A stretch of DNA of 27,530 bases from a virus. Its lineage: Duplodnaviria; Caudoviricetes. Positions 4,705 through 25,381 of the stretch are shown here, one piece after another (position 1 is the stretch's first letter; each line of letters opens with the position of its first letter). The notes beneath the pieces were generated by a model that made no database searches, was not told the origin of the DNA, and was given only the letters and a program-made list of their open reading frames with translations. The position numbers and the translations under genes are program-made. Location of the stretch: IMG/VR virus record IMGVR_UViG_3300011440_000050, positions 1 to 27,530 of that record; one strand, given 5' to 3'.

Positions 4705-5177
4705 AGCTTCCTCACAGGAACGCGCGTGCCCTTGGGCAGCGCGAAAATTGGCACGAGTGCGGGCGGCTGGTTGGATGTCGCGCTCACCTGACTGATCTCG
4801 TCGGCCATCTCGATAGCTCGCAGGCTGATTGCCGGGTTGGCGTTCTTGGCGTGAAAGGCGAGGCGCTCGGCCCGGGCCTGGACGCTCAGGTTCTTGATGA
4901 GGTGGGCGCGGTAGAGTTCCCGCTCCTTCCCCTGCTTCTCCACATCGCTGGGCTTCATGCCCTCGGCGTCCCGGATCTCGGCGACCTGCTGCCGAGCGAC
5001 CCCTGTCGTCTCCTCGATTACGGCGAGCGACTGGCCCTCGGCGAGCATGAGGATGATTAGGTCGCGTAGGCCCTCATCCAGCCGCGGGCGACGCGCCGGC
5101 ACGTCAGCCGGCTCCCCGTCGTCGCTGGGGTCAATCGGTGCTTCGTACGGCGGCTCGTCTGGATCTGGTGCCAACAC
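4701..5177 (-). CDS. putative terminase small subunit (HTH)
   Basis: First gene of the packaging operon; HTH-like MLAEGQSLAVIEETTGVARQQVAEI; strong AAAGGAG RBS before GTG. Confidence 0.6.
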   Translation of the reverse strand: MLAPDPDEPPYEAPIDPSDDGEPADVPARRPRLDEGLRDLIILMLAEGQSLAVIEETTGVARQQVAEIRDAEGMKPSDVEKQGKERELYRAHLIKNLSVQARAERLAFHAKNANPAISLRAIEMADEISQVSATSNQPPALVPIFALPKGTRVPVRKL

Positions 5178-5215
5178 CCCTTCTCCTTTCTATCCTCATC
5201 CCCTGACAACGTCCG

Positions 5216-5244
5216 ATTATACCACAGAAGAATGCGAATGTCAA
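5216..5244 (-). promoter_or_regulatory. sigma70 promoter for packaging operon, perfect consensus
   Basis: Minus strand TTGACA (5244-5239), 17 nt spacer, TGg-TATAAT (5221-5216). Confidence 0.9.
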
Positions 5245-5269
5245 GCAGAAAATGCATTAATAGAAAAAT

Positions 5270-5800
5270 ACCCCGAGCGCCCGGCGGGCGCGAGGCCGCT
5301 TCGGGGTGGGCCCCCCCAGGGCGAGGCCCGGGGTAGGGTGGCTCCAGCGGGCGCGGGGCCCGGGGTGAGAGCTGAGCCGGGGCAGATGCGGCCCGGTTGG
5401 CCCGGCAAGTGTTAACTTCTTGCCTATCAACAATATAAAAGGACCCCCGTCCGGGGTAGGGAGGCTCCTGCGGGTCAAGGCTCCCCCGTCCCCTCCCCCC
5501 GGGGGGCCCCATTCGGCCTCCCGTCCCCCCTATCCCCTTGCCGCTCAATCACTTGCGTATGCACAGTGCTTGCGACCCATGCGAGGTCGTAATCACAAAT
5601 CCGACGGCGAAGCCCTACGAGGCGCGCCCTGTAGACGCTCTACAGGAGGGTGGGCTAACGCCTTGCCTATCAATAGCATAGGCGGCCGCTGCGTACGCAG
5701 TGGGCCAAGCGTATGCGCGTAAGCATAGGCGTATGCAGGGGATAGGGCATAGGGCATAGGGCGAGGGCAAAGGCCGCGGGAGAGAACAGGCGAATCATAC
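5270..5800. other. divergent non-coding region with G/C runs and short repeats; candidate packaging site/genome end or origin
   Basis: G- and C-runs 5300-5540; direct repeat CTTGCCTATCAA at 5419-5430 and 5662-5673; inverted repeat CCTGTAGA/TCTACAGG 5628-5646; TAGGGC(A) tandem at ~5743-5762. Confidence 0.5.
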
Positions 5801-5811
5801 GCATTTGCCTG

Positions 5812-5840
5812 TTGACACCGGGGGGCATATGGCCTATTCT
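5812..5840 (+). promoter_or_regulatory. sigma70 promoter for early arm
   Basis: TTGACA (5812-5817), 17 nt spacer, TATTCT (5835-5840); GAGGAGG RBS and ATG follow. Confidence 0.75.
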
Positions 5841-5871
5841 CCATATGCGCATCGACGCGCGAGGAGGAGAG

Positions 5872-7790: not shown

Positions 7791-8638
7791 TAATCGGAAC
7801 GGCGAAAGTCGTTTACGGGCCCAGGATTCAGAGCAAAGACACGGGCTTCATGCGCGCGGACGGCACCGTATTGATGTGCAAATCTGCAATGACGCCGCTT
7901 GTGACCGCACGCCGCGTCCGCGCGACGTACTGTCCGCCTGAGCTTGGGCTTAGAACTATGCCAACGCGCGTATCGAACGGTATCGCGCAAACGGCTGATC
8001 CCACTTTCACCGCTATCGCTCACCACGCGAACATTCCCGGGGACACCCCGCTAGATTTTGCATCATGGTGCGCGCAGATATTCGCGCCAGACGACGGCAA
8101 AGAACACGCCTATCACGCGGTGATGACAGTAGACGGTGACGTCTATCTCATCGAAACGGGCGTGGGCAGCGTGTGCGCGGTAGTACCGGACTGGACACAG
8201 CTACTGATCGCCGAGCCCGACGTCACAAAATGGGAGTGGGTTCTGTCCATGCATACACATCCGGGAGGCACGGCGCCTTCGCAGCAGGACAAGTACGGCG
8301 CGTGGGCACAAGACGAAGACATGACCGCATGCGGATTTACCGGCATGTCTCAATACGCGACGCTCAACATGTCATCTCGCGCAGCTGAACCTTACGACCC
8401 CGAACAACCGCCACAAGGTACGGGCGACATAATCGCGATCCTTCCTCTCGACATGCCGAAGGACATGCTTGACAAGCTGATCAAAGCGCTAGGCGGGGAG
8501 AACGGGGGCGAAGACGAGAACCCCGAGGGCGAGGGCGAGGATTACCAGGATGAACACGGGGGCAAGCCCGACCCCGACGAGGCAAAGAACCAAGACGACA
8601 AGCGGCACGAGAGCCCGGACGGGTTCGCCTTCGACTAA
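7781..8638 (+). CDS. JAB/MPN (JAMM)-domain protein with acidic C-terminal tail
   Basis: MHTHPGGTAPSQQD fits HxH...SxxD; upstream KEHAY supplies a candidate catalytic Glu. Confidence 0.7.
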   Translation: MSVIIGTAKVVYGPRIQSKDTGFMRADGTVLMCKSAMTPLVTARRVRATYCPPELGLRTMPTRVSNGIAQTADPTFTAIAHHANIPGDTPLDFASWCAQIFAPDDGKEHAYHAVMTVDGDVYLIETGVGSVCAVVPDWTQLLIAEPDVTKWEWVLSMHTHPGGTAPSQQDKYGAWAQDEDMTACGFTGMSQYATLNMSSRAAEPYDPEQPPQGTGDIIAILPLDMPKDMLDKLIKALGGENGGEDENPEGEGEDYQDEHGGKPDPDEAKNQDDKRHESPDGFAFD

Positions 8639-8648
8639 GCGAATGCGC

Positions 8649-8680: not shown

Positions 8681-9337
8681 ATGCGAATGGCGAAACTGGC
8701 CGATCTACCAACCGCGCAGCGATTCAAGCTCGATCACATCATCGGCATGTTGTTATCGAAGACCGTAGACGACGCTGGCGTCTGCACTCGGGCCTACGTG
8801 CGCATCTGGGACACGAACGATCGCGTAATGGTGCGCATCGAAGGCCGCGAGTTTCCCGGGATGAGGAAAAGGGACGTCGATTGGAGCCCGGGCACGAGCG
8901 TCGAGCCCATCTCCATCGTCGAGTTCCAGTCGATCAGTCAGCGCCGGCCCCCGGACCTTGGCGTGATCCCGCGTATTGAGGTACCCGACGAGCCCGCACC
9001 CGCGGACGAACTTGCCCCGGAACGCATACGACGCGAAGACGTTGAACTCGTTGTAGTGGAAGAGGTTACGGTCACGCCCGCGGTGCGCAAGCCCAAGAAG
9101 ATCCGGCCCGCCCCGAAGCTCGTGTCCTCCGCGCCGCATACGAGTGTGATCGAGAAGACGATAGCGCAGGGCCGGATCTGTATCTGCGGTTGCGGGGAAG
9201 TTGTCGAAAAGACGCTCAAGCGCGGGCACTACATGCGCCTACGCAATTGGGCCGACGACCTACGCCGCGGGAAACTTCAGCAGTCCGACATACCGAAGGG
9301 TGCGCTCATGCACATGCTCGAAAAGGGGATGATCTAA
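8681..9337 (+). CDS. hypothetical protein with C-terminal CxCGCG...GH metal-binding motif
   Basis: AGGAG RBS; CICGCGE...RGHYMRL. Confidence 0.75.
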   Translation: MRMAKLADLPTAQRFKLDHIIGMLLSKTVDDAGVCTRAYVRIWDTNDRVMVRIEGREFPGMRKRDVDWSPGTSVEPISIVEFQSISQRRPPDLGVIPRIEVPDEPAPADELAPERIRREDVELVVVEEVTVTPAVRKPKKIRPAPKLVSSAPHTSVIEKTIAQGRICICGCGEVVEKTLKRGHYMRLRNWADDLRRGKLQQSDIPKGALMHMLEKGMI

Positions 9338-12160: not shown

Positions 12161-12663
12161 AGACCATCGCTGCTGCACTCTGTTTCTCGCTGATTGCGGC
12201 TCAGGCAATCGGCTCGAAGCGCGATCCGTACGAAGTGACGGTGTACCCGCGCATGGGCCTGCCGCCGCTCGGCGATCAGGTGCAGAACTACCACATCACG
12301 CTTCGCCTGAACGAGCCACTTACGGAAGCGAACTACTGCATCGGCGTCGAAGTGACGTGGCCGGACGGCACGCGCTCATCGCATGTGCAGGACTGCCCGC
12401 CCTTCGCCGAGTACATCGCGCAGGTGAGACGCTACACGGAATGCCGCGAGCAGGTCATCGTCTGCCCGAAGGACTACACCGTATGCGAGTTCGACTGTCC
12501 CGCGCCCTTCGATCTACAGCGCGAGTGGACGTTCGATACGAGGCGTATGAGGCACGCCTACGGCCCGGGACGTCACACGGTCTTCGTGAAGTTTCTACTG
12601 CCGGGCGGCAGAACGATGCTGCGCTCAGCGGACTGGCATGTTGCAGGTGAGGAGGAACGATGA
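12154..12663 (+). CDS. secreted Cys-containing hypothetical protein
   Basis: Signal-peptide-like KTIAAALCFSLIAAQA; start ATG 12154 or GTG 12157 overlapping upstream stop. Confidence 0.7.
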   Translation: MVKTIAAALCFSLIAAQAIGSKRDPYEVTVYPRMGLPPLGDQVQNYHITLRLNEPLTEANYCIGVEVTWPDGTRSSHVQDCPPFAEYIAQVRRYTECREQVIVCPKDYTVCEFDCPAPFDLQREWTFDTRRMRHAYGPGRHTVFVKFLLPGGRTMLRSADWHVAGEEER

Positions 12664-13232
12664 TCGACTTTCAAGAGATTGAAGCTAGCTACTCTCCGGC
12701 GGGATCGCTCGGCCAACGCTGCATCGAGATCTTCGGCCACGCGGTGAACGGCGTAAGACGGCTGAATGTCGGCTGTGGCGGACAGAAGTTCCCCGGCTGG
12801 ATCAACGCCGACAAGGAGCTGCCATGGCTCATCGCGGAGGGCCGGGAGCAAGAACCGGATGTGCTGTGGGACATGGACTACTACCACGAGATACCACTTC
12901 CCCTTGAGTCCTTTGACGTGATACTCGCCTCGCATGTGCTGGAGCACGTCGCCGATCCTGTCGCCGTCGTCTTCCGGCTGCACACGTTACTGAAGCCGGG
13001 CGGGCGCCTTCTCGTGCTCGTGCCGAACGCTTGGTCCGACGTGGGCCTCTGTAACCCCTTCCACCGCAACTACTTCTCCATGCACTCGTTCGTCTACTAC
13101 CGCAAGAGCACGTATGACCAGCCGGGAACGCCAGGCTATCACGCGAACGAGGGGCGCCCGATCGCGGACTGGGCGAGCGTCCAGGTGGCGATGGTGGACG
13201 AGTACGAGATCGCCGCGGTGTTAACGAAATGA
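12660..13232 (+). CDS. class I SAM-dependent methyltransferase (type 11-like)
   Basis: LNVGCG, FDVILASHVLEHV, LLKPGG, NPFH. Confidence 0.88.
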   Translation: MIDFQEIEASYSPAGSLGQRCIEIFGHAVNGVRRLNVGCGGQKFPGWINADKELPWLIAEGREQEPDVLWDMDYYHEIPLPLESFDVILASHVLEHVADPVAVVFRLHTLLKPGGRLLVLVPNAWSDVGLCNPFHRNYFSMHSFVYYRKSTYDQPGTPGYHANEGRPIADWASVQVAMVDEYEIAAVLTK

Positions 13233-13762
13233 GCGAACTCCTGATCGGTGCCGGCTCCTGTCGTGAGAAACTGATCGGCGTTCGCGACGGGCTCGTCTAC
13301 ATCTACCCGAGCGAGAACATGCCGCCGTGGCTACGCCTCACCACACTCGACAACAACGCCGACCACGCTCCGGATGTGCTCGCCGATCTGCGCGAGGCGC
13401 TCCCCTTCTCCGATGAGTGCTTCGACGAAATCCACGCCTACGAAGTGCTGGAGCATGTCGGGCAGCAGGGCGACTACATCGAGTTCTTCCGACTCTTCGG
13501 CGAGCTATGGCGCATACTCAAGCCGGGCGGACTCCTCCTCGCGAAGTGCCCGAGCTGGCGGGGCATGTGGGCCTGGGGCGACCCCTCGCATACGCGGGTG
13601 ATCTCGTCGGGCACACTGACCTTCCTCGACCAGCGTGAGTACGAGAAGCAGGTGGGCAAGACTCCGATGAGCGACTTTCGTGGTATCTGGAAACGCTCAT
13701 TCGAGACGATGTTCACGCAGGAAGATGGAGACACGCACTACTTCATTCTGAGGAAAGCATGA
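13229..13762 (+). CDS. class I SAM-dependent methyltransferase (type 11-like)
   Basis: LLIGAG, FDEIHAYEVLEHV, WRILKPGG, AWGDPSHTR. Confidence 0.88.
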   Translation: MSELLIGAGSCREKLIGVRDGLVYIYPSENMPPWLRLTTLDNNADHAPDVLADLREALPFSDECFDEIHAYEVLEHVGQQGDYIEFFRLFGELWRILKPGGLLLAKCPSWRGMWAWGDPSHTRVISSGTLTFLDQREYEKQVGKTPMSDFRGIWKRSFETMFTQEDGDTHYFILRKA

Positions 13763-14601
13763 TTCAGCTTCAGCTCGAAACCATCGGCGGCATATGCAAC
13801 GCCGCGTGCCACTTCTGCCTCCTGCAAGATCGCAAGTACTACGCGAACCAGGGCGTGCCCACGGGCACGATGAGCATGGACCTGTACCGCAAGATCATCG
13901 ACGAGGCGGTGGGCATACCTGAAATCTCACGGCTGACGCTCACGGGGTTGAGTGAGACGCTCCTCGACAATCAGCTTGAGGAGCGGATCGCATACGCGCG
14001 CCAAAAGCAGGCATCGTCTGCAGCGTACGCCTCCATCTGGCCCATCGACATCTACACGAACGGGCTTGCGCTCCGTCCTGATCGCTTCGACTCGCTCAAG
14101 GCAGCGGGGCTGACCGGTCTCAGCGTGTCACTCAACGCCGTGCGACCCGAGCAGCACACCGCCATCATGGGAATTAGGGCTTACGAACACATATGCCGAA
14201 ATATCGACTACGCCATCATCACGGGTGGCGTACACGTCGAAGTGAAGGCCGTGGTGAACGGGGACGCCTTCACGACGAAGGACGCGGAGCAGTTCAACTC
14301 TCGCTGGCATCCGTATGCTGTGTGTGTCCATGAGGGCAATTGGGCCGGGGACAACCGCACCTTGCGGGCCTTCGACCCGAAGGAGCCCTGCCACCGTGCC
14401 ATCGGCCAGCTTTACGTGACCTGGGAGGGCCGGGTGGGCATGTGCTGCTTCGACCCGCTTGCCAAAGCGAACTTTGGAGACCTCCGCACGCAGAGCATCA
14501 AAGAGGTGTACAATGCGCAGAGGTACGCGGACTTCCGCCAGGACCACGCGGAGGGCCGGGCTGACGCGCACGCCGTATGCGCCAAATGCACGCGTATCTG
14601 A
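13759..14601 (+). CDS. radical SAM protein with SPASM/Twitch-like domain
   Basis: CNAACHFC (CX3CX2C), YTNG, C-terminal PC...YVTWEGRVGMCCFD...CAKC. Confidence 0.92.
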   Translation: MIQLQLETIGGICNAACHFCLLQDRKYYANQGVPTGTMSMDLYRKIIDEAVGIPEISRLTLTGLSETLLDNQLEERIAYARQKQASSAAYASIWPIDIYTNGLALRPDRFDSLKAAGLTGLSVSLNAVRPEQHTAIMGIRAYEHICRNIDYAIITGGVHVEVKAVVNGDAFTTKDAEQFNSRWHPYAVCVHEGNWAGDNRTLRAFDPKEPCHRAIGQLYVTWEGRVGMCCFDPLAKANFGDLRTQSIKEVYNAQRYADFRQDHAEGRADAHAVCAKCTRI

Positions 14602-14614
14602 GGAGGGTAGAGTC

Positions 14615-14722
14615 ATGCTTGAGCTGATCATGTTCCTTGTCACCATGGCCGTCCTACACATCTGGGGCTGGAAGGGGGCCCTCATCGCTGCATGGTGCGC
14701 AGCGCTCATTCTGCGGGACTGA
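14615..14722 (+). CDS. 35-aa hydrophobic peptide
   Basis: GAGGAGG RBS; MLELIMFLVTMAVLHIWGWKGALIAAWCAALILRD; ends just before terminator. Confidence 0.65.
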   Translation: MLELIMFLVTMAVLHIWGWKGALIAAWCAALILRD

Positions 14723-14729
14723 CGTACCG

Positions 14730-14757
14730 GCCCCCCTCCTCGGGGGGCTTTTTTTTT
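14730..14757 (+). terminator. intrinsic terminator
   Basis: GCCCCCC-tcctc-GGGGGGC stem followed by T9. Confidence 0.92.
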
Positions 14758-14775: not shown

Positions 14776-14804
14776 TTGACGCATTCGCATTTCCATGTTA
14801 CAAT
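14776..14804 (+). promoter_or_regulatory. sigma70 promoter upstream of putative ncRNA
   Basis: TTGACG (14776-14781), 17 nt spacer, TGt-TACAAT (14799-14804). Confidence 0.8.
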
Positions 14805-14810
14805 GGTTGC

Positions 14811-15043
14811 GTGAGGTGGGGACAACCCCCATCTGTCACGGGGTTTCACCGGGTTACTTGTGACCTTGCTCCTGTCCATACGGTAAGAGGCGGGCAGCAT
14901 GCAGCTTCGGGTTGGCGGTTCTTCCTCTTACCGGAGGACGGACAAGCACAACCCGTCTTGCATTCTGCAGTCGGCTAACGAGTAGCAATTAGTGGGGAGT
15001 GGGGGAGCTACAACCGATATGGAAACGCGGAACATGACACCAC
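14811..15043 (+). ncRNA. putative structured non-coding RNA of unrecognised family
   Basis: Own promoter; nested stems incl. perfect 10-bp CGGTAAGAGG/CCTCTTACCG within a ~106-nt rod (14850-14955), 5' hairpin, and long-range closing pairs. Confidence 0.6.
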
Positions 15044-15068
15044 AAAATAGCGTTAGGTGCGATTTCGC

Positions 15069-15098
15069 TTGACTTTGCGAATGCACATGTGGTACACT
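15069..15098 (+). promoter_or_regulatory. sigma70 promoter for replication cluster
   Basis: TTGACT (15069-15074), 18 nt spacer, TGg-TACACT (15093-15098). Confidence 0.7.
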
Positions 15099-15139
15099 GT
15101 ACCTATCATGAGCGCTGGACGCTCAGAGGAGGAAAGTAG

Positions 15140-15871
15140 ATGTCGCTCTTCAATCCTAAGAACGCGCGCGTCGGCGGCAAGCTCGTGGACAACGTCGATG
15201 CCGATGTGACGTTCGAGACGGTGCTGTACGACTATAACGGGACCGTCGCGGTTCCCGTCCCCGCGATTCACCTGCACGGCGTCGTCACTGCCTCGCAGGA
15301 TGAGTCGCTCCACGCCATCGGCTCGGAGTTCGACGAGTACTACTCCGCGGGCAAGGCCGAGGAGTTCGCGCCCACCGGGAAGTACTTCACGATCCGCAAG
15401 GAAGGCGCCCGCCTGTCCGATCAGAGCAAGGCCATGGCCTTGTTCGTCGCGCTGCAGAACTCGGGAATCCCTGAGGAGACGTTTGACGCTGAGGACGTGA
15501 CCCTGTTCAACGGCAACTACAGCTTGACCCGCAAGCGGGAGACGCGGGAGTTCAAGAACAGGGCCGGGCAGAAGGAGACGAAGGAGTCGTCCATCCTGCT
15601 TCCTACCGCCGTCAATGAAGGCGTCAAGAAGGTGAAGAACAACGCGAAGGCGTACAACGGTGCGGCCAAGGACCGTGCCACTTCGATCGTGTCCGCGATC
15701 ATCGCCGAGAAGGGCGTTGTCCCTTCTAGCCAGTTGGGCGCGATGGTCTTCAATAAGGTGTCGAAGGACAAGGACGCCCAGGCCATCGTCAAGGCGGCTA
15801 TCGATCAGTCGTTCCTGGCCGCGGGCCCCTGGCAGTTCGAGAACGGAGTGCTTTCGTCGACGAACACGTAA
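15140..15871 (+). CDS. hypothetical protein, possibly ssDNA-binding
   Basis: GAGGAGG RBS, first gene after promoter, beta-rich aromatic N-half; function inferred from position only. Confidence 0.6.
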   Translation: MSLFNPKNARVGGKLVDNVDADVTFETVLYDYNGTVAVPVPAIHLHGVVTASQDESLHAIGSEFDEYYSAGKAEEFAPTGKYFTIRKEGARLSDQSKAMALFVALQNSGIPEETFDAEDVTLFNGNYSLTRKRETREFKNRAGQKETKESSILLPTAVNEGVKKVKNNAKAYNGAAKDRATSIVSAIIAEKGVVPSSQLGAMVFNKVSKDKDAQAIVKAAIDQSFLAAGPWQFENGVLSSTNT

Positions 15872-15873
15872 CA

Positions 15874-15933
15874 GGCCGAAACGGCGGGTAACGTAACCGC
15901 CGTCCGCGTGTTAGGCACGCGCTGAAGAGGGCC
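15874..15933 (+). ncRNA. type II hammerhead ribozyme (copy 1)
   Basis: GGCC-GAAA, stem III ACGGCGG/CCGCCGT, GUC site (cut after 15904), stem I CGCGTG/CACGCG, CTGAAGA core, one extra G, then GGCC. Confidence 0.88.
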
Positions 15934-16663: not shown

Positions 16664-17151
16664 GCAGCAGCAAACCGACACCGCAGGACATCGAGCGGGC
16701 GTGGAAGTACCTCAGCGGGCGCATCTGCGGCACACACGTTCATGGGAGCATTGAAGGGCTCGCCACCGAGTTCGCCGCCGTCAAGGAGGAGACGCAGCGG
16801 GAGCGGGATGTCTGGTGGGGCAAGACTCTCTGCCCCGATGTCTCTCCCGTGCAGCTTGATCCCGAAGTACACCGGGAGGCCGCCATCGCTACCGCCGAGT
16901 GCAACGAAGCCCGCGTCCGCCAGCTTGAGACCGACCTGGAGAATGCGCGAGAAGACCTCGCCATCATGCAAGCCGACCTTGAGCGAACCCAAAACGCCGA
17001 GGCCGAGGTGGAGCGGCTGCGCGCTGTCGTGGATGATCGGGATCTCAGAATCGTCTCGGCGAGGGGCCGGATCTGCGAAGCCGAAGCCGACCTCGCGGCC
17101 CTGAAGGAGCGGAACGAACGGTTGGTGGAAGTGGCGGCAGAAGACGCGTAG
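16660..17151 (+). CDS. coiled-coil hypothetical protein (Ead/Ea22-like style)
   Basis: ATGA-coupled start 16660; NAEAEVERLRA heptads; stop overlaps the first base of hammerhead 2. Confidence 0.7.
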   Translation: MSSSKPTPQDIERAWKYLSGRICGTHVHGSIEGLATEFAAVKEETQRERDVWWGKTLCPDVSPVQLDPEVHREAAIATAECNEARVRQLETDLENAREDLAIMQADLERTQNAEAEVERLRAVVDDRDLRIVSARGRICEAEADLAALKERNERLVEVAAEDA

Positions 17152-17210
17152 GCCGAAACGGCGGGGGTTTACCACTGCTGTCCGCGAGTCAGGCTCGCGC
17201 TGAGGAGGCC
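17151..17210 (+). ncRNA. type II hammerhead ribozyme (copy 2)
   Basis: GGCC-GAAA, stem III ACGGCGG/CTGCTGT, GUC site (cut after 17182), stem I CGCGAG/CTCGCG, CTGAGGA core, GGCC. Confidence 0.92.
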
Positions 17211-22714: not shown

Positions 22715-22869
22715 TGGACTGTCAGGTGTGCGGATTCCCTACTGATTATTCCTTCGTCTGCGGCCTTCACGGCGTAACGTTGGAGTGCATATGGGAGTAC
22801 ATCTGCTTCGACTGCTGGCTGTGGGCTGACAACCTTGACACATGGGGGCGAAGTGCACACGAGGATTGA
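22714..22869 (+). CDS. small Cys-rich protein
   Basis: TAGTG overlap; CQVC...CGLH...CFDC. Confidence 0.5.
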   Translation: MDCQVCGFPTDYSFVCGLHGVTLECIWEYICFDCWLWADNLDTWGRSAHED

Positions 22870-25381
22870 GGGTGAGGGGCCGCGACCGTGCTCCGTGATG
22901 TGGGTGGGCGAGGCCCCTACGCCTGCGGAGAAGATGAGCGGGCGCGTGTGGCAAGGCAAGGCGGGGACGCTGCTCTCGCGCGTGATGGATGCTGCGGACT
23001 TGTTCCGTCCCGACCAGTACATCACGAATCTGCGGAAGACGTTCGTGCAGGAGGGTGAGGACATTTTCACGGAACTCGACGAGTTCGGGCTCGAAGTCGC
23101 GTGCGTCAAGCCGAGCGTCATCGTCGCCATGGGCCGCAACGTCTCGCGTTACTTCCTCGGCGACGTGGACATGGAGGCCGTACACGGCAACCCGTACAAG
23201 CAGACGATTGCTATCGGCCAATCGGGTACGCTTTGGACAGGCACCGTGATCCCCATTTACAGTCCGGCGGCGGGGTTGTACGACGCTTCGCTCCTCGGCG
23301 CAGTGCTCAGCGATGTCCGTCGGGTGGCTGCGGTGATAGCAGGGGATGAGGCCCCGAGACTGCTGCGGCAAGATGTGGTGAAGGAGTACCGTTGGGGTTT
23401 CGACTCCCGCTGCCTCTGCTACCAAAAGGAATCCGTGATCGGGCTCGACACTGAGGGCTGGCAGGATGCGCCTTGGTGCCTTTCCTACTCCTGGGCCAAG
23501 GGGCAGGCTGCGGTGATCCGTGCGAATGATGACTCTCAGCTATACCTGTTTCGTAAGTGGCTGCCCGGCGTCAAGCAGGTTTGGCTTCACAACTCGCTGC
23601 ACGACCTGGGTGTGCTCAAGGCCATGGGTATCACGCTACGTGACGACCAGATTCAAGACACGATGCAGCTCGCATACTGCATCCAGTCTGAGCCACAGGG
23701 GCTCAAGGCCCTCGCGCTACGGCATCTCGGCCGGCATATGCAGAACTACCACGATCTGACTTTCCCCTTCGACCAGCTCGGTGCGGCCACCTACCTGCGG
23801 AAGATAGCTGCGGGGAACTGGCCAAAGCCGGAGCCCTATTTTGATGAGGAAGAACAGAAGGTGAAGAAGCCGCGCAAGCTGCAGTCGCGCGCCGCAGAGC
23901 TGCTGAAAAAGTATGACGCGGGTGGGCTGGAGAAGTCGTTGCGGGACACTTGGGCTGACATCCCCGCGCATGTGCGGGCAGTCGTTGAGGAGGCTGCCAA
24001 GGAGCAGGGTGATCTTGGCCCCATGCCGCCCTTCTCGCTCAGCGATTGCCCGAAGGATAAGGTGCTCGACTACGCCGCCGAGGACGCGGACGTGACCTTA
24101 CAGCTCGCAGGGCCGCTCGCCGCGATGGCTGTGGGTCGGAAGGTGTCCGACGTGTACGAGATCGACCGTCAGTGTATACCGATCCTTCAGCGTATGCAGG
24201 AAGTAGGCATGCGGGCGGACCCTGCACACTTCCGCAGGCTGACGGAGACGTTCACGAACAAGATGGCCGGGAAGCGGTTGGAGATCGCTTCGTATAACAA
24301 GGGCGAGGACGTGAATCCGTCCTCCAGTGACCAAGTCGCCACTCTGCTGTACGACCGGCTCCGGCTTCCTGTGCTGAAGCTGACGCCGGGCCGCAAGCCC
24401 TCGACTGAAGACAAAGTGCTCGAAGCCTTGCGCGAGAAACATCCGGTGCCCGGGCTCATCTGCGACTACCGGGAGTATGCCAACCTTCGCAACAACTTCT
24501 CTTCCAAGCTGGCCGGCATGGTACGTCCTGATGGCCGGGTGAGCGGGCGTATCCGGGGGACGCGAGTGCCTTCGGGCCGCATTGCGATGAGTGAGCCGAA
24601 CCTGCTCGGTATCCCGACGCGCACCGCGGAAGGCGTACTGATCCGCAACGGCTTTCCCGCACCGCCGGGCCGCGTGTTGGCTTCGTGCGACCTTGACCAA
24701 ATCGAAATGCGTGTGATGGCAAGTCTCAGCGGCGACGCGCTGCTCAAGGGCCATTTCCGTGATGGTCGCGACGTGCATGTGCAGACGGGCGCCCGCATCT
24801 TCGGCGTGTCGCTCGAAGAGGCGAAGCAGAAGAAGTACCGCGACCCGGCGAAGACGACTGGCTACGGCATCCTTTTCGGCATCTCTGGACAGGGGCTCGA
24901 TGAGCAATTCCGCAAGCTAGGCATTACGGGCGTGCGCGGTCAAGACATGATCGACGGATGGTTGGGGATGTACAAGGGCGTCCACAGGTTCATCAAGGAG
25001 ACGCACCGTCAAGCCGCGATGAGTGGATACATCCGGGACGAGAGCGGGCGAATCCGCGACTTGCCCGGCGCCCTTATCGGCGACCTGCACCAACTCTCCG
25101 AGGCTCGGCGCTTCGCTGTCTCTCAACGTATCCAGGGGACCGCGGCGCACATCTTGAAGCGCGCACAGCTCCGTGTGTGGGAGTGGATTCAGGGGTGTCC
25201 GTTCGCAGATTTGCTGCTACAGATCCATGATGAACTCCTCTTCGAGTGCGAAGAGGGGCAGGAGGAGTTGCTCAAGACGTTGGTGCTCGAAGCAATGACC
25301 GCGGACTCGGGCGTACTCCTCTCCGTGCCCATCACCGCCAAGATGGGCTTCGGTAAGACCTGGGGCGCTCTCAAGGACTGA
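22835..25381 (+). CDS. polA: family A DNA polymerase with N-terminal UDG-like and 3'-5' exonuclease domains
   Basis: VGEAP/GKAG/YITN (UDG family 4-like); LDTE, HNSLHD, YAAEDA (Exo I-III); DLDQIEMR, RDPAKTTGYGILFG, IHDEL (Pol A-C); start may be GTG 22853. Confidence 0.95.
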   Translation: MTHGGEVHTRIEGEGPRPCSVMWVGEAPTPAEKMSGRVWQGKAGTLLSRVMDAADLFRPDQYITNLRKTFVQEGEDIFTELDEFGLEVACVKPSVIVAMGRNVSRYFLGDVDMEAVHGNPYKQTIAIGQSGTLWTGTVIPIYSPAAGLYDASLLGAVLSDVRRVAAVIAGDEAPRLLRQDVVKEYRWGFDSRCLCYQKESVIGLDTEGWQDAPWCLSYSWAKGQAAVIRANDDSQLYLFRKWLPGVKQVWLHNSLHDLGVLKAMGITLRDDQIQDTMQLAYCIQSEPQGLKALALRHLGRHMQNYHDLTFPFDQLGAATYLRKIAAGNWPKPEPYFDEEEQKVKKPRKLQSRAAELLKKYDAGGLEKSLRDTWADIPAHVRAVVEEAAKEQGDLGPMPPFSLSDCPKDKVLDYAAEDADVTLQLAGPLAAMAVGRKVSDVYEIDRQCIPILQRMQEVGMRADPAHFRRLTETFTNKMAGKRLEIASYNKGEDVNPSSSDQVATLLYDRLRLPVLKLTPGRKPSTEDKVLEALREKHPVPGLICDYREYANLRNNFSSKLAGMVRPDGRVSGRIRGTRVPSGRIAMSEPNLLGIPTRTAEGVLIRNGFPAPPGRVLASCDLDQIEMRVMASLSGDALLKGHFRDGRDVHVQTGARIFGVSLEEAKQKKYRDPAKTTGYGILFGISGQGLDEQFRKLGITGVRGQDMIDGWLGMYKGVHRFIKETHRQAAMSGYIRDESGRIRDLPGALIGDLHQLSEARRFAVSQRIQGTAAHILKRAQLRVWEWIQGCPFADLLLQIHDELLFECEEGQEELLKTLVLEAMTADSGVLLSVPITAKMGFGKTWGALKD

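Follow-up and report, generated by a model that had tools for sequence, protein, structure and literature searches.

A predicted RNA of about 230 nucleotides, encoded at 14811-15043 on the + strand of a tailed-phage sequence, has a core (14850-15016) for which we find two predicted structures without a base pair in common. The DNA analysed (the window) is a stretch of 27,530 nucleotides from IMG/VR record IMGVR_UViG_3300011440_000050. Our folding models indicate a real, unusual and uncatalogued structured element, and we consider it highly probable that this element is under selection. As to what it does, we tentatively propose that it is a stand-alone two-state RNA that gates an internal 28-codon frame, in the manner of type I toxin mRNAs. 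Exclusive rods combined with an own, putatively operator-bearing promoter would make a compact and testable switch, and phage regulatory RNAs beyond those of model phages have barely been catalogued. As a single instance in one phage population, the element is a lead and not yet a family.

Two mutually exclusive predicted folds

The original prediction, made from the sequence by eye, described an independently promoted RNA of several nested stems and unrecognised family. Every stem that it listed is present, and folding against shuffled controls favours the + strand (z -2.69, 1 of 200 shuffles as stable) over the - strand (z -1.21). The multi-stem arrangement is nevertheless not the predicted ground state: of two folds it ranks second, and the more stable one had been missed. 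Relative to the minimum, its rod is 3.8 kcal/mol less stable, and its full model, with the arm at 14971-15018, 9.7 less stable. The structures that we discuss are as follows.

14850-14955, + strand: fold A rod; z -3.89; probability (P) about 1.0 for transcripts ending at 14940-14960; predicted nascent fold
14852-15015, + strand: fold B whole rod; the minimum free energy (MFE) structure; 14864-14872, or more widely 14864-14879, pairs with the G-run
14893-14968, + strand: fold B apical hairpin; z -5.95, 0 of 200 shuffles as stable; exclusive of fold A

The core has an MFE of -68.7, against -55.8 +/- 4.2 in shuffles, and the best fold that shares none of its pairs, which is fold A, reaches -63.3, against -50.1 +/- 3.0; 0 of 200 shuffles were as stable in either comparison. 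The energy gap between A and B, 5.4, is ordinary, and what is unusual is the stability of both. When the window was scanned for such pairs of folds, this tile ranked first of 163 on both measures, in a scan that is noisy (12 shuffles per tile) and whose tile frame was set on this RNA. Alternating purine and pyrimidine tracts may inflate the scores of both folds relative to shuffles. The second strongest two-fold signal in the window comes from a coding tile at 8003-8169 (z -4.2 and -3.6). On the scale of single folds, the region ranks third among 114 tiles of 233 nt. The two tiles that fold better (z -4.35 and -4.01) both lie in 5177-5870, a GC-rich, palindrome-bearing non-coding region between divergent promoters, possibly an origin, a packaging site or a genome-end region.

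Fold A is built around a perfect 10-bp helix (14881-14890/14924-14933), and a perfect helix of at least 10 bp arises in 20 of 1000 shuffles. Fold B pairs the strand 14933-14955 with 14908-14928, and the core of its apical hairpin, 14908-14914/14949-14955, has P 0.976-1.0 in four energy sets. Its middle helix has P 0.44-0.97 for ends up to 15090, its bubble consists of 14880-14888 and 14973-14991, and its outer, closing helices fail to hold across energy sets and lose strength once the RNA is extended. At full length, B is the winner in all four energy sets. Two details of the original prediction fare less well than its stems. The outer pairs TGTCA/TGACA and GTTTC/GAAAC can form but are weak (P 0.01-0.75 and 0.03-0.63, respectively, over four energy sets and three 3' ends). 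The G-rich loop was thought able to pair with the 5' C-run, but the 5' hairpin already takes up those Cs (P 0.99-1.0), and 14864-14872 is the preferred partner of the G-run (P about 0.76, from folding without pseudoknots).

The order of folding follows from the length of the chain. While a growing transcript ends between 14940 and 14960, A is dominant; from 14970 on it is B, apart from a near tie at 15010. Since the direct path from A to B has a barrier of 43 kcal/mol, which is an upper bound, refolding may need a helper.

No homolog turned up outside this phage, whether among phages, plasmids, viral contigs or related loci and records, and the family is indeed unrecognised: Rfam has no match on the RNA (whole window at E<=1; 371 bases at E<=10). 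The expected absence of tRNA and tmRNA holds (ARAGORN finds 0 genes, and Rfam no match), as does that of RNase P and SRP. Compared by eye with the characteristic motifs of RNase P, SRP, hammerheads, twister and CRISPR repeats, the RNA gave no reason to keep any of them as a candidate, and Rfam matched none. A weak aceE-II match (13.4 bits, where the cut-off is 100) falls on the downstream promoter. Searches with blastn found 2 phage records with 25-nt chance matches, and in plasmids, among the matches listed, nothing longer than 31 nt and none covering 80%. Three patterns derived from the RNA yielded no homolog in viral contigs beyond the same phage; the resulting loci were followed with a covariance model on 80 of 121 and nhmmer on all 121, and a 19-bit match of 53 nt (L051) was discarded as the very hairpin that the pattern had selected. 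Covariance models built on the folds, weak because each holds one distinct sequence, found fold B in 0 of 28 related records and fold A only in the same phage among 29 records, 5 of them near complete.

An accessory insert with its own predicted promoter

By its sequence, the window is a tailed-phage fragment, with terminase, portal, helicase, Sak4-like protein, ERCC4 nuclease, family A polymerase and tyrosine integrase among its annotated genes. The integrase suggests that the phage is temperate; a host assignment by way of the integrase found no close named relative. Half or more of the stretch's words occur in 6 sequencing runs, 5 from freshwater sediment and 1 from groundwater. A second record of the same phage (45 kb; L001/G001) is 99.7% identical to the window and carries an identical RNA. 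Within one run, strains differ by 15 substitutions in 1685 bases, of which 1 falls in the RNA (14840) where about 2 would be expected, an uninformative difference. One RNA run gave a single 261-nt contig (15118-15378, depth 2.1) and no coverage of the RNA, which decides neither expression nor absence. The features around the RNA are these.

12660-14722: upstream accessory block of two methyltransferases, a radical SAM/SPASM enzyme and a 35-aa hydrophobic membrane peptide
14729-14757, + strand: intrinsic terminator with an 8-bp GC stem and a T-run; closes the methyltransferase/radical SAM/35-aa peptide genes
14776-14804, + strand: promoter P1, sigma-70 type, TTGACG-17-TG-TACAAT; 10/12 consensus, extended -10
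14782-14790, + strand: CATTCGCAT box, in the P1 spacer
14814-14834, + strand: 5'-terminal hairpin; P 0.95-1.0 in three energy sets, 0.36-0.69 in the fourth
15069-15098, + strand: promoter P2; 9/12 consensus
15140-15871, + strand: conserved 243-aa phage protein; 1029 relatives at E<=0.001
15874-15933, + strand: unannotated type II hammerhead ribozyme with an intact core, between the stop of the 243-aa gene and the next ATG
17151-17210, + strand: second type II hammerhead, found with a motif script, again between a stop and an ATG

The 243-aa protein likely binds single-stranded DNA, a lead only, drawn from structural neighbours among DUF669/SSB proteins at a TM of about 0.3; Pfam gave no match in 57 members of the family. 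A helicase lies upstream of this SSB-like gene in 27 of 28 related loci, the remaining locus ending short of there. In the relatives, as read in 9 + 14 intervals, the two genes are directly adjacent or separated by unrelated small genes, while in the window phage the same interval holds several extra genes and the RNA. From this comparison we conclude that the RNA is a lineage-specific accessory insert ahead of a replication operon. Enzymes 30-45% similar to those of the upstream block adjoin likely virion genes in two other loci (L024, L025), and no such RNA lies downstream of these radical SAM relatives. One strain variant is about 22 bases longer at 14717-14749, where the 35-aa gene ends ahead of the terminator; the added bases are in part a short duplication. 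A 39-aa form of the 35-aa peptide is present in the protein collection.

The terminator and both promoter-like sites were part of the original prediction and all three hold. With 10/12 consensus positions and the TG, P1 supports independent promotion and looks like a real promoter of the RNA's own; it is one of 7 window sites under a stricter promoter rule, and its predicted start lies near 14811. The downstream replication operon probably had P2 as its ancestral promoter, and TTGAC-type sites, identified by eye, precede the same gene in four relatives (L014, L031, L040, L041). The CATTCGCAT box, a motif picked after being seen, has 3 exact copies in the window against 0.22 expected, and 0 of 100 shuffles reach 3. 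Exact or one-mismatch copies stand at or near promoter-like sites at 5232-5240, 5796-5804, 8637-8645, 8681-8689, 14782-14790 and 15075-15083. One lies in the P2 spacer, with one mismatch; of the two further exact copies, one overlaps a consensus promoter at 5244 and the other sits at the gene start at 8681, near TTGACA. This distribution is that of a putative operator, likely bound by a phage regulator.

The 5' hairpin is likely end-protecting. In about 150 viral stretches (L050-L170), a GGTGGGG/CCCCA hairpin begins within 6-12 bases after a -10 box, often before a Shine-Dalgarno (SD) sequence and an ATG. As the same layout is common in unrelated phage leaders, the hairpin is generic to phage 5' ends and is no mark of a family. 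At the other end of the transcript, no clear terminator had been noticed after the RNA, and we likewise find no U-tailed one between P1 and the downstream gene, so that the proposed 3' boundary at 15043 is without support. A possible 3' hairpin at 15057-15086 (z -2.92) overlaps P2. The first hammerhead, with a predicted cut after 15904, would set the 3' end of both P1 and P2 transcripts. It scores 27.3 bits with RF02276, below the cut-off of 37, and was missed in the whole-window scan; type II hammerheads flanking prophage genes have been described (PMC3088659). Stem I of the second hammerhead shows a compensatory change relative to the first; for this one Rfam has no match at E<=1. No minus-strand promoter reaches 9/12 near the RNA, and a single 8/12 site at 15180 is not convincing as an antisense start.

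A proposed folding switch for a 28-codon frame

Two features inside the RNA, both overlooked by the original prediction, give the two folds a possible output.

14899-14985, + strand: candidate 28-codon ATG open reading frame (ORF); hydrophilic product, no homolog
14883-14890, + strand: SD-like sequence of this frame, forming the 5' strand of fold A's 10-bp helix

Against an anti-SD motif, the SD-like sequence scores -7.9 kcal/mol, a value inside the span of -2.9 to -12.0 seen for 13 phage genes. Of 2000 shuffles, 59 contain an ATG preceded by an SD of this strength and opening a closed frame of at least 28 codons, the thresholds being the observed values themselves. This is the best of 10 start-codon frames of at least 10 codons in 14811-15070, all of which have low gene scores. 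A 55-codon GTG frame (14811-14978), raised earlier as a possible gene, proved non-coding, with a score below all 97 true coding windows, a GC3 of 0.52 and no homolog; a 17-codon frame at 15019 and a 52-codon frame on the minus strand were likewise rejected as genes.

Sequence and computation give the consensus match of the promoter, the box it shares with other promoters, both folds and their order, and the place of the SD in the 10-bp helix. Transcription from P1, control by a repressor at the box, a refolding step inside the cell and production of the peptide are what we infer. P1 would fire when the phage regulator releases the CATTCGCAT box. The nascent RNA would form rod A, in which the ribosome site is locked against the frame's own coding sequence, and once the segment past about 14965 has been made, the RNA could refold to B. 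As fold B would free part of the site, with the opening cost roughly halved, the peptide would be made late or only upon a trigger. In the models, opening the site at 14883-14902 costs 20.5 kcal/mol in A and 11.3 in B; beyond this gating of the SD, we found no clear output predicted for the switch.

The evidence on this proposal points both ways. In its favour are two disjoint folds that each exceed 200 of 200 shuffles, an SD placed in the 10-bp helix of A, and an interval that takes up unrelated small genes in relatives. Against it, the frame has a low codon score (3.8th percentile of 208 true windows; GC3 0.70 against 0.78 for phage genes), is not recorded by gene callers, and encodes a peptide for which the protein collection, PHROGs and GenBank phages contain no match. 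Even in B, the site is costlier to open than 9 of 11 real start sites, which in their local context cost 4.5-19.8. The peptide is also hydrophilic (mean hydropathy -0.98; best 17-mer -1.15), whereas type I toxins are typically hydrophobic membrane peptides. Its composition says that it is not a membrane toxin, and because the hydrophobic-peptide feature failed, we do not file the RNA under type I toxin mRNAs.

The proposed switch would nonetheless follow the logic of those mRNAs. A criterion of type I toxin-antitoxin systems, a small ORF whose SD is sequestered by alternative folds, is what the models predict here. The closest parallels are timP (PMC13000454) and aapA3 of H. pylori (PMC6733600), type I toxin mRNAs under folding control in which the SD of a small ORF is locked by alternative structures that include its own coding sequence and in which the nascent RNA adopts an off-fold; timP is described as switching without processing. 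They differ from the present case in that our candidate peptide is hydrophilic and no clear antisense antitoxin is seen. A second parallel is IsrK-orf45 of prophage Gifsy-1 (PMC4825925). This RNA of a temperate phage has its own promoter and can adopt either of two structures, which determine how accessible the ribosome site is for a small ORF that precedes a larger gene. In IsrK, a terminator gives rise to a short form acting in trans, and translation is coupled to the next gene (PMC4825925); we see neither feature here. If the peptide is gated as we propose, folding control of the toxin-mRNA type would extend to a non-membrane phage product.

Alternative explanations

The shape of fold B invites comparison with RNAs that bind RNA polymerase. 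6S RNAs are rods with a central bubble and closing ends (PMC8876501), and fold B is a predicted rod closed by its 5' and 3' ends, with a central bubble, a small hairpin in the 3' bubble and a length of 165-205 nt, within the 6S range; just 5 of 300 shuffles give an unbranched end-to-end rod. Fold B could thus be the working form of a phage-borne decoy that titrates the host enzyme while strong phage promoters keep firing, and several phage promoters in the window scan are indeed close to consensus. We regard this as unlikely. The 6S model (RF00013) has no match at E<=10, so that a 6S-like predicted shape goes with a failed 6S model, although divergent members can be missed, since only 4 of 14 genomes gave a match at the cut-off in a control search. 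The outer closure of the rod is unstable across energy sets and weakens upon extension, the 5' bubble is just 9 nt in the MFE structure, and the second, disjoint rod is left unexplained. Simulated blocking of the 5' strand, which mimics a product RNA, refolds the RNA but not into an extended 3' hairpin (P<=0.03 in 15 of 15 blocks); other 6S types use other elements (PMC8876501). The promoter rule for 6S sensitivity, including the sparing of strong -35 promoters, is itself disputed (PMC5982834).

The size of about 230 nt, the 5' hairpin before a bubbled rod and the possible 3' hairpin at 15057-15086 also recall the Streptomyces Ms1-type RNA scr3559 (PMC9130861). Here the RF02566 model scored 4 candidates, none at E<=10, the 3' hairpin overlaps the next promoter, and the Ms1 host is actinobacterial. 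A combined reading, in which an inert newborn fold gives way to a 6S/Ms1-like open-promoter mimic that times host transcription and possibly carries a small peptide gene, we judge quite improbable. Binding of fold B to RNA polymerase would make this RNA a 6S-like decoy encoded by a phage. A narrow combined literature query found no paper on a phage- or prophage-encoded 6S-like RNA; an account of further polymerase-binding RNAs, in its excerpted text, never mentions phage (PMC11077062).

It is also doubtful, to a similar degree as the plain decoy, that the RNA is a protein-free small RNA of a new family acting in trans on a host protein or host mRNAs, with the 28-codon frame a product of chance and one of the folds an intermediate. 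The own promoter and 5' hairpin would suit such an RNA, as would its anti-SD-like pyrimidine tracts and the low gene scores of all 10 frames, but it has no terminator and no strong complement in the phage, the best stretches being 15-16 nt with none on a start site. Nor are GGA motifs enriched (8, a count reached by 159 of 1000 shuffles). Most of these 8 are paired in the MFE structure, and a CsrA/RsmA sponge was rejected.

The possibility that the RNA is a leader was raised in the original prediction, and part of the argument stands: with no U-tailed terminator between P1 and the SSB-like gene, P1 could read through P2, and the fold could set the output of that gene. In one fold of 14811-15145, 14866-14873 does pair with the gene's SD. 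That long-range pairing is lost when 25 more bases are included, however, and the gene's ribosome site costs 7.2 to open in A and 7.0 in B and is thus unchanged by the fold. The gene also possesses P2, a promoter that persists in several relatives without the RNA, and we see no terminator or antiterminator output. We give this reading little credence.

Equally little credence goes to the absence of selection, with the insert a decayed remnant or a random capture and its good folding a chance effect of purine and pyrimidine tracts. The searches, with no homolog and one phage population only, are compatible with it, as are the two other window tiles that fold better at the 233-nt scale, but a near-consensus promoter with a shared box, and two folds that exceed 200 of 200 shuffles and rank first of 163 tiles, argue against it.

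ColE1 RNA II primes replication via a persistent RNA-DNA hybrid. That the P1 transcript might do likewise at its G-run, priming the family A polymerase, is very improbable: the RNA stands at the head of a replication operon, has a G-run and alternative folds, and no primase was recognised among 40 window proteins, but none of 28 other records searched contains it (26 were chosen for carrying the same SSB-like gene, and 5 are near complete), the locus shows no skew inversion, and the predicted fold contains no G-quadruplex. The polymerase itself (22835-25381) carries an N-terminal uracil-DNA-glycosylase-like domain, and a separate exonuclease gene follows it.
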